Below are positions 62,242 to 62,924 of a stretch of DNA of 64,000 nt, piece by piece. The stretch lies in NCBI RefSeq assembly GCF_044324875.1, contig NZ_CP172185.1; one strand, given 5' to 3'. Each line of letters starts with the position of its first letter. Within the stretch, counting starts at the first letter, position 1. The notes beneath the pieces were generated by a model. That model did no database searches. It saw only the letters and a list, made by a program, of their open reading frames with translations, and was not told the origin of the DNA. The stretch is from Escherichia coli. Lineage in GTDB: Bacteria; Pseudomonadota; Gammaproteobacteria; Enterobacterales; Enterobacteriaceae. A program made the position numbers and the translations under genes.

Positions 62242-62924
62242 GCTTCCTCCTGCAACTGCCCGTTCACCAGCCGTAAGCAGCGGTCGCAGCGTGCCGCCAG
62301 TTGCAGGTCGTGGGTCACCATAATCAACGTGGTGCCATGCTCACGGTTGAGGGAAAACAGCAGGTCGGCAATTTTATCGCCGGTCTGGCGGTCAAGGTTG
62401 CCGGTGGGTTCGTCGGCAAACAGCACATCAGGTCGACCATTAAAGGCTCGCGCCAGCGCCACTCGTTGCTGTTCGCCGCCGGAAAGCTGTGCCGGAAGAT
62501 GATCAAGACGTTTACCCAGCCCTAACTGTTCGAGCAACGCTTTCGCTCCGTTACGACTTTCCGCGCTACTCTCACCGCGCAGCAGCGCCGGAAGCTCGAC
62601 GTTTTCCAGCGCGTTAAGGGTAGGAATTAACATAAATGACTGAAAAACAAAGCCTACGTGCTTCGCGCGCAACTTTGCCCGCGCTTCTTCGTCCATATTA
62701 TGTAGAGGTTGTCCCACCAGACTCACTTCGCCACTGCTGCCGTCATCCAGCCCGGCGAGGATCGCCAGCAAGGTTGACTTACCCGATCCCGACTCGCCCA
62801 CCAGTGCGATGGTCTCGCCACGTTTGACAACCAGCTCAACTCCGGTGAGGATGGAGAGTTCATGCTCCCCCTGACCGACGGACTTCTTAAGATGATGAAC
62901 TTCAACAATGTTTTCCGCTGGCAT
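62238..62924 (-). CDS. ybbA: ABC transporter ATP-binding protein YbbA
   Basis: 228 aa, Walker A GESGSGKST, signature LSGGEQQR. Confidence 0.95.
   Translation of the reverse strand: MPAENIVEVHHLKKSVGQGEHELSILTGVELVVKRGETIALVGESGSGKSTLLAILAGLDDGSSGEVSLVGQPLHNMDEEARAKLRAKHVGFVFQSFMLIPTLNALENVELPALLRGESSAESRNGAKALLEQLGLGKRLDHLPAQLSGGEQQRVALARAFNGRPDVLFADEPTGNLDRQTGDKIADLLFSLNREHGTTLIMVTHDLQLAARCDRCLRLVNGQLQEEA

Follow-up and report, generated by a model that had tools for sequence, protein, structure and literature searches.

Do the divergent genes tesA and ybbA of Escherichia coli share the coding DNA of their 5' ends, or does the overlap between them arise only from the tesA start codon that an annotation happens to choose? 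The ybbP-ybbA/tesA-ybbO region lies at the end of the window (the 64,000-nt stretch of DNA that we analyzed), and the original prediction, made from the letters of this stretch, was that the two genes overlap head to head by 33 bp, with the promoter and the ribosome-binding site (RBS) of each embedded in the coding sequence (CDS) of the other. The overlap is correct but already known, from the annotation of strain K-12, from the recent paper on the YbbAP-TesA complex (PMC12646458) and as a catalogued transcript overlap. From gene models and comparative sequence data, we conclude that it is very probably a genuine and conserved head-to-head overlap in which ybbA is translated from ATG 62924 and tesA from ATG 62892 or ATG 62895.

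The locus and the overlap

The identities, strands and coordinates originally given for tesA and ybbA agree with the sequence, its open reading frames (ORFs), the NCBIfam matches and the RefSeq annotation (Table 1). TesA (412 bits against NF007819), YbbA and YbbP each match their own NCBIfam equivalog model over its full length and score above the curated cut-off. The neighborhood has the composition of a YbbAP-TesA locus: a MacB/LolD-like ATPase, YbbA, is followed by the permease YbbP (NF007879 and NF041854) in a translationally coupled arrangement, the ybbP ATG and the ybbA stop codon sharing 4 nt (ATGA, 62238-62241), and an exported SGNH/GDSL hydrolase, TesA, adjoins ybbAP (NF007819, with a GDS motif and a signal peptide). 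The genes tesA and ybbO form an operon divergent from ybbAP, and the TesA and YbbAP products form one transporter-hydrolase complex (PMC12646458); in the window, the ybbO ATG overlaps the 3' end of tesA by 11 bp. Solved structures exist for both TesA and YbbA. The full 228 residues of YbbA are present in cryo-EM chains (PDB 9GE6-9GE8), and the first residue in all solved chains of E. coli TesA is residue 26-28 of the precursor, whose signal peptide has the n-region MMNFNNVFRWH and the h-region LPFLFLVMLTF (residue 19 being Met in the window strain and Leu in K-12). A scan of positions 62000-64000 against Rfam matched no RNA families.

Table 1. Features of the tesA-ybbA junction and the flanking genes, with positions counted from the first letter of the window
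Feature	Position	Strand	Description	Basis or use
ybbP CDS	59827..62241	-	YbbAP type VII ABC transporter permease	ORF; NCBIfam NF041854, 1452 bits; annotation
ybbA CDS	62238..62924	-	ABC ATPase, 228 aa, start ATG 62924-62922	ORF; NCBIfam NF007879 aligned 1-228 to 1-228
Candidate tesA -35, TTGACA	62824..62829	+	Within ybbA codons 32-34	Own position-weight scan; conservation
Candidate tesA -10, GAGGAT	62847..62852	+	Within ybbA codons 24-26	Own position-weight scan; conservation
tesA start candidate, ATG	62862	+	218 aa; 63-bp overlap	Used by some gene callers
tesA start candidate, ATG	62892	+	208 aa; 33-bp overlap	Used by K-12 RefSeq
tesA start candidate, ATG	62895	+	207 aa; 30-bp overlap	Used by PGAP (strain 7/2)
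tesA start candidate, TTG	62925	+	197 aa; zero overlap	Used by some gene callers
Head-to-head coding overlap	62892..62924	both	33 bp, or 30 bp with tesA start 62895	Sequence
tesA CDS	62892..63518	+	Periplasmic SGNH hydrolase, 208 aa (ATG 62892) or 207 aa (ATG 62895)	ORF; NCBIfam
tesA signal-peptide codons, residues 1-26	62892..62969	+	Mature start Ala27 (GCG, 62970)	Solved structures
ybbA Shine-Dalgarno core, AGGA	62932..62935	-	7 nt upstream of ATG 62924, within tesA codons 14-15 (Phe-Leu)	
ybbO, 5' part	63508..64000	+	Aldehyde reductase, continues beyond window edge	Sequence; annotation

Read on the plus strand from 62892, the shared segment runs ATG ATG AAC TTC AAC AAT GTT TTC CGC TGG CAT, and its reverse complement from 62924 runs ATG CCA GCG GAA AAC ATT GTT GAA GTT CAT CAT. 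On the minus strand, the CAT at 62922-62924 reads as the start codon ATG of ybbA, and ATG 62892 of tesA lies inside the first 11 codons of ybbA, as had been claimed. The segment comprises codons 1-11 of tesA and codons 1-11 of ybbA, paired codon for codon in exact antisense so that position 1 is opposite position 3, the tandem tesA ATGs being the antisense of YbbA His11 and His10 (CAT CAT). The opposite-strand 5' coding ends of two genes for known proteins accordingly share 33 or 30 bp. The head-to-head overlap itself is real, and the K-12 RefSeq annotation is identical, but the figure of 33 bp is not decisive, an overlap of 30 bp being equally annotated (by PGAP).

Such an arrangement is beyond chance or normal gene spacing. 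The other divergent gene pairs in the 40-kb neighborhood (n = 3) are 145, 229 and 366 nt apart. Divergent overlaps make up about 1% of well-characterized gene overlaps (457 of 42,055; PMC2478687) and are under-represented in prokaryotic genomes (PMC2478687, PMC2174442). Of the 5,426 complete genomes of E. coli, 5,418 contain a match to the 601 bases around the overlap, with identities of 95-99.7%.

Start codons and double constraint in Enterobacterales

For ybbA the start is forced to 62924. An in-frame stop lies 8 codons upstream of this ATG with no start codon in between, and no alternative ATG, GTG or TTG follows it ahead of the part of the protein that an intact ABC ATPase fold requires. 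The start of tesA is the point on which the overlap turns, as the original prediction had itself recognized; public gene calls use four differing starts (Table 1). The N-terminus of mature TesA is uninformative about initiation because the signal peptide is removed, and the Shine-Dalgarno sequence before 62892/62895 is weak (GGA only). For comparative evidence we aligned the 21 Enterobacterales loci that lack large indels, out of 80 gammaproteobacterial loci gathered at one genome per species.

The tandem ATGs at 62892/62895 appear from this alignment to be the best-supported tesA start. Codon 1 or codon 2 of tesA is ATG in all 21 Enterobacterales (15 have it at codon 1 and 19 at codon 2). Several genera, among them Superficieibacter, Mangrovibacter, Pseudescherichia and Pantoea, have only the second ATG, and Photorhabdus has only the first. 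The substitutions are also visible in the partner protein: ACG, ATA or ATT at codon 1 of tesA gives HR, HY or HN in YbbA, and CTG at codon 2 gives QH.

The overlap is constrained at all three codon positions (0.23-0.34 bits across the 21 species). Third positions of ybbA codons 2-11 have a mean of 0.29 bits, compared with 1.27-1.42 bits elsewhere in ybbA (p = 4e-7, Mann-Whitney). Just ahead of the tandem ATGs the constraint on ybbA weakens, and at codons 19-23 (1.3-1.7 bits), a stretch that includes ATG 62862, it is relaxed entirely. As far as patterns of substitution can show it, the shared 30-33 bp are under double constraint and dual-coding for both proteins.

Start-proximal codons are somewhat conserved in general. 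We used the N-terminus of ybbP as a control, which gives 0.75 bits with its Trp codons included (p = 0.066 versus ybbA) and 1.07 bits when these non-degenerate codons are left out (p = 0.0025 versus ybbA). Judged by the latter comparison, start proximity alone would not explain the constraint on the third positions of ybbA.

Every scorable Enterobacterales locus has an overlap of 30 or 33 nt, except those of Brenneria, Pectobacterium and one metagenome-assembled genome (39 to 78 nt); the overlap is not scorable in Ca. Pantoea persica, whose ybbA is degraded. Pectobacterium and Brenneria carry a 48-nt insertion within the overlap, and both N-termini are longer. Depending on the ybbA ATG chosen, Pectobacterium has an overlap of at least 51 nt, probably 75-78 nt, and Brenneria one of 45-78 nt.

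Initiation signals embedded in the partner gene

With start codons in this geometry, the first 10-11 codons of tesA and ybbA are mutually antisense in exact register, the RBS and core promoter of each gene would lie inside the partner gene or operon, and the mRNA 5' ends would be complementary. The original claim of embedded initiation signals is a consequence of this geometry, and two conserved elements support it: the AGGA ahead of ybbA, located in tesA codons 14-15, and a promoter-like sequence ahead of tesA, located in ybbA codons 24-34.

The columns of the ybbA AGGA are nearly invariant across the 21 Enterobacterales, including the synonymous third position of Phe14 (0.28 bits), and every Enterobacterales locus listed has a match for ybbA resembling a Shine-Dalgarno sequence. 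We also considered the ybbA RBS as the whole explanation for the conservation of the TesA h-region LPFLFL; this idea was kept only in part, its sole support coming from the AGGA core and from the third position of Phe14. Synonymous sites over tesA codons 12-26 as a group are unconstrained (p = 0.72).

The sequence TTGACA-N17-GAGGAT, 40-70 bp inside ybbA, is likely to be the tesA promoter. It scores 10.0 in our own scoring-matrix scan and is the sole site found at the same column in 21 of 21 species; the window as a whole has 0.18 sites of that score per kb per strand. Across codons 24-34 of ybbA the synonymous variation dips, and Val32 and Val33 have the same third base in all 21 Enterobacterales. 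A strict test limited to four-fold sites admits Val33, which does not vary, whereas 0 of 45 comparable background sites are invariant. The predicted transcript start is at approximately 62858-62862. A built-in scan for promoters and terminators over 62500-63300 reported no promoters at its threshold, and the candidate -10 matches at only three of six positions.

For ybbA, we found no conserved sigma-70-like promoter inside tesA that is common to more than 8 of the 21 species near the start. In the list of constitutive promoters of Shimada (2014), ybbAP appears only as the gene upstream of the rhsD promoter, which is irrelevant here. A back-to-back bidirectional promoter was considered and rejected: the start codons are interleaved by 30-33 bp, so that RNAs from any pair of transcript starts would overlap.

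The tesA and ybbA mRNAs would, on the same geometry, have 5' ends that are complementary across no less than about 90 nt. Any indel placed at the junction would alter the spacing of both RBSs together, and this shared disturbance may be why the arrangement has been stable over long periods.

The arrangement across Gammaproteobacteria

Beyond the Enterobacterales, the gene order is retained throughout the sample: a ybbA homolog lies directly upstream of tesA and is divergent from it in 80 of the 80 loci. Start codons in the distant loci were chosen heuristically and conservatively, and 77 of the 80 could be scored for start spacing. The starts overlap by at least 4 nt in 25 of these 77 loci, fall between -20 and +3 nt in 39, are separated by a gap of 21-100 nt in 10 and by more than 100 nt in 3; in 64 loci, then, they overlap or lie within 20 nt of each other. 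At 20 loci (two of them checked by eye) the start codons overlap by 2 nt in a common CATG palindrome. These come from Vibrio, Salinivibrio, Psychromonas, Rheinheimera, Oceanisphaera, Halomonas and Colwellia, and also from Marinobacterium, Nitrincola, Cycloclasticus and Dokdonella. In Pseudomonas the starts are 10 nt apart, which fits the 21-residue signal peptide of Pseudomonas aeruginosa TesA (PMC3715468), and in some lineages (Aeromonas, Marinobacter and Salinicola) the spacer measures 60-440 nt. In the gammaproteobacterial ancestor the starts probably abutted or shared a CATG, with the Enterobacterales later lengthening the TesA n-region into ybbA.

Alternative explanations

The overlap could be real and also have an active regulatory role, the tesA-ybbO and ybbAP transcripts, whose 5' ends are complementary, working as an excludon-type switch that sets or anticorrelates the levels of TesA and YbbAP through RNase III cleavage or polymerase collision. 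The geometry forces the antisense overlap of about 90 nt or longer described above, the tight head-to-head arrangement is conserved across Gammaproteobacteria, and tesA-ybbA is one of the 16 divergent transcript-overlap pairs (excludons) that ExcludonFinder lists for E. coli MG1655 as present in at least half of 58 RNA-seq samples (NAR 2025, PMC12288877). That listing, however, is a near-automatic consequence of overlapping CDSs, and the lineages with spacers of 60-440 nt indicate that the tight overlap is not obligatory. Mutual exclusion is, moreover, not the logic expected of TesA and YbbAP, which work in one complex (PMC12646458), and we found no data on expression, RNase III or double-stranded RNA for this particular pair. 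We consider a switch of this kind possible but unlikely.

Another reading takes the interleaved starts of tesA and ybbA as an ancient, selectively maintained gammaproteobacterial module, in which the RBS and promoter of each gene sit in the first codons of the other and obligatory antisense pairing of the 5' ends could set the stoichiometry of hydrolase to ABC transporter. In most lineages the starts have CATG in common or are no more than about 10 nt apart, and in Enterobacterales they overlap by 30-78 nt. If true, it would be a case of a conserved divergent overlap at the CDS level that co-regulates partner proteins instead of excluding one of them, and we offer it tentatively, as distinctly unlikely.

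The remaining alternatives would change the overlap itself. If translated from the upstream ATG 62862, tesA would overlap ybbA by 63 bp and encode a precursor of 218 aa, of which 36 residues would be signal peptide. The reading frame of tesA is open at this point (from 62862 to 63518 on the plus strand), several gene callers pick this codon, it is start-capable in 18 of 21 species, and the GGAGAG 3 nt upstream (5 nt for its GGAG core) is a far stronger Shine-Dalgarno sequence than that of the tandem ATGs. The codon is ATG in only 14 of the 21 species, however; Rahnella has a stop codon immediately upstream of MMNF, and neither Citrobacter sp. FP75 nor strain RIT691 has a start codon at the equivalent of 62862. 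The n-region would be 21 residues long with a net charge of +1, and the synonymous sites of ybbA codons 19-23, which would then be tesA CDS, show none of the constraint seen at codons 1-11. The candidate -10 furthermore overlaps the Shine-Dalgarno sequence of 62862, which would place the transcript start at or past that sequence. Initiation at 62862 is therefore quite improbable.

Also very unlikely is that tesA starts at the in-frame TTG 62925 just past the ybbA ATG, so that the CDSs abut and the overlap is an annotation artefact of choosing an upstream ATG: many automated calls do use this codon (194-199-aa forms with the N-terminus (M/L/V)PFLFL), its position is about that of the abutting starts in other Gammaproteobacteria, and long divergent overlaps in large surveys are usually errors of 5' extension (PMC2478687), but the 60-bp rule of that survey is inapplicable to an overlap of 30-33 bp, the TTG lacks a Shine-Dalgarno sequence and would give a signal peptide without a charged n-region, its codon is start-capable in only 13 of 21 Enterobacterales (being TGG, TTA, CTT, CTC or TTT in the others), the 10-11 codons upstream of it are conserved as a peptide, (M)MNF[NK]xxFRWH, over which the synonymous sites of ybbA are frozen, and both curated RefSeq and the NCBIfam models take in the N-terminal extension beyond it.

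We thus return to the tandem ATGs, and because these are the best-supported tesA start, the overlap would be 30 or 33 bp.

Implications for annotation and strain construction

Public databases hold at least four N-termini for TesA (197, 207, 208 and 218 aa), among which the comparative evidence favors those that begin at the tandem ATGs. The gene tesA is employed extensively in strains that produce fatty acids. Where its 5' end or signal peptide is deleted or recoded, residues 1-11 of YbbA and the ybbA RBS change too, and edits within the first 34 codons of ybbA may, conversely, affect the tesA RBS and its likely promoter.

Comparison with known systems

The genes tesA (b0494) and ybbA (b0495) of K-12 are the same locus and have the identical 33-bp overlap in RefSeq. 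The paper on YbbAP-TesA (PLoS Biol 2025, PMC12646458) mentions the overlap of the two operons; start-codon choice, codon-level constraint and embedded initiation signals are not discussed there. What is added here is that comparative evidence favors the tandem ATGs over the other candidate starts of tesA, together with codon-level evidence for dual constraint, a candidate tesA promoter inside ybbA, and the finding that tightly interleaved starts are widespread in Gammaproteobacteria.

Bidirectional promoters resemble this junction in that two divergent units are controlled from a very compact region; their starts, a few to about 20 bp from one another, point apart and their RNAs do not overlap, whereas the transcript start of tesA or ybbA would have to lie past the start codon of the partner, and the two RNAs would face each other and be complementary. 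Bidirectional promoters with back-to-back starts were reportedly described by Warman et al. in 2021 (Nat Microbiol). In classical excludons, the overlap is between untranslated regions (UTRs), expression is mutually exclusive and the functions are opposed, whereas tesA and ybbA overlap in their CDSs and their products are partners in one complex.

There is a further likeness to the short divergent overlaps surveyed by Lillo and Krakauer (2007, PMC2174442) and by Palleja et al. (2008, PMC2478687), with which the pair shares its 5'-5' orientation, its phase (123:321) and the adoption of a start codon inside the neighboring gene. The overlap of 51-78 nt in Pectobacterium is near or above the limit of 60 bp beyond which the 2008 survey found zero real cases (PMC2478687). 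Short divergent overlaps are often misannotation, whereas the tesA/ybbA case survives comparison with orthologs. It raises no new question, and it provides a clean, conserved instance of a rare class, that of real divergent coding overlaps, between genes for one complex.

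A shared start-codon motif across Gammaproteobacteria

In 20 loci of our comparison set of 80 gammaproteobacterial ybbA-tesA loci, the start codons of tesA and ybbA share the palindrome CATG and so overlap by 2 nt (two examples are listed in the table below). The loci with this arrangement belong to many gammaproteobacterial genera that are only distantly related, a distribution in the sequences which suggests that the CATG-sharing arrangement is old and has been maintained.

Positions of the shared start motif in two comparison loci and of the co-directional overlaps in the window (L030 and L064 coordinates are internal to those loci)
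Feature	Position	Strand	Details
CATG shared by both starts	L030 3015-3018		Vibrio hepatarius
CATG shared by both starts	L064 3024-3027		Dokdonella fugitiva
tesA/ybbO overlap, 11 bp, co-directional	63508-63518	+	ybbO ATG at 63508, tesA stop at 63516-63518
ybbA stop/ybbP start, common ATGA, 4 nt	62238-62241	-	From sequence and ORFs

The 11-bp tesA/ybbO overlap is identical in the annotations of K-12 and strain 7/2. Stop/start overlaps of the 4-nt ATGA kind are the classic type linked with translational coupling.

The tight arrangement of tesA and ybbA has a single clear exception, Salinicola tamaricis (L068, 2441-2884), in which the two starts lie about 440 nt apart and the n-region of TesA is long and highly charged. 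The symbiont genome of Candidatus Pantoea persica (L024, approximately 2600-3030) retains tesA, and matches to ybbA there are fragmentary, frame-broken and confined to residues 140-218; from its sequence, this ybbA is likely to be a pseudogene.

Start calling and the TesA N-terminus

The calling of tesA starts at this locus is systematically inconsistent across public protein databases: among the deposited TesA orthologues (P0001-P0120) there are at least four distinct N-termini, and several entries are far longer fusions (286-347 amino acids) whose reading frame runs on through ybbA in antisense. Residue 19 of the TesA signal peptide is Met in the window strain (codon at window 62946-62948, within the peptide LVMLTF) and Leu in K-12 and E. 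albertii. The Met19 codon is an additional in-frame ATG, which lies too near the signal-peptide cleavage site to act as a tesA start.

An enlarged overlap in Pectobacterium and Brenneria

Pectobacterium betavasculorum (L018) and Brenneria roseae (L016) carry a 48-nt insertion within the tesA/ybbA overlap (approximately 3025-3078) that is coding on both strands, adding about 16 residues to the n-region of the TesA signal peptide and about 15 to the N-terminus of YbbA. The Brenneria overlap measures 45-78 nt, the value being set by the choice of ybbA ATG. In Pectobacterium the two divergent genes share no fewer than 51 nt (with a GTG start) and probably 75-78 nt, a length near or above 60 bp, the limit beyond which no divergent overlap proved genuine in a survey published in 2008 (PMC2478687).
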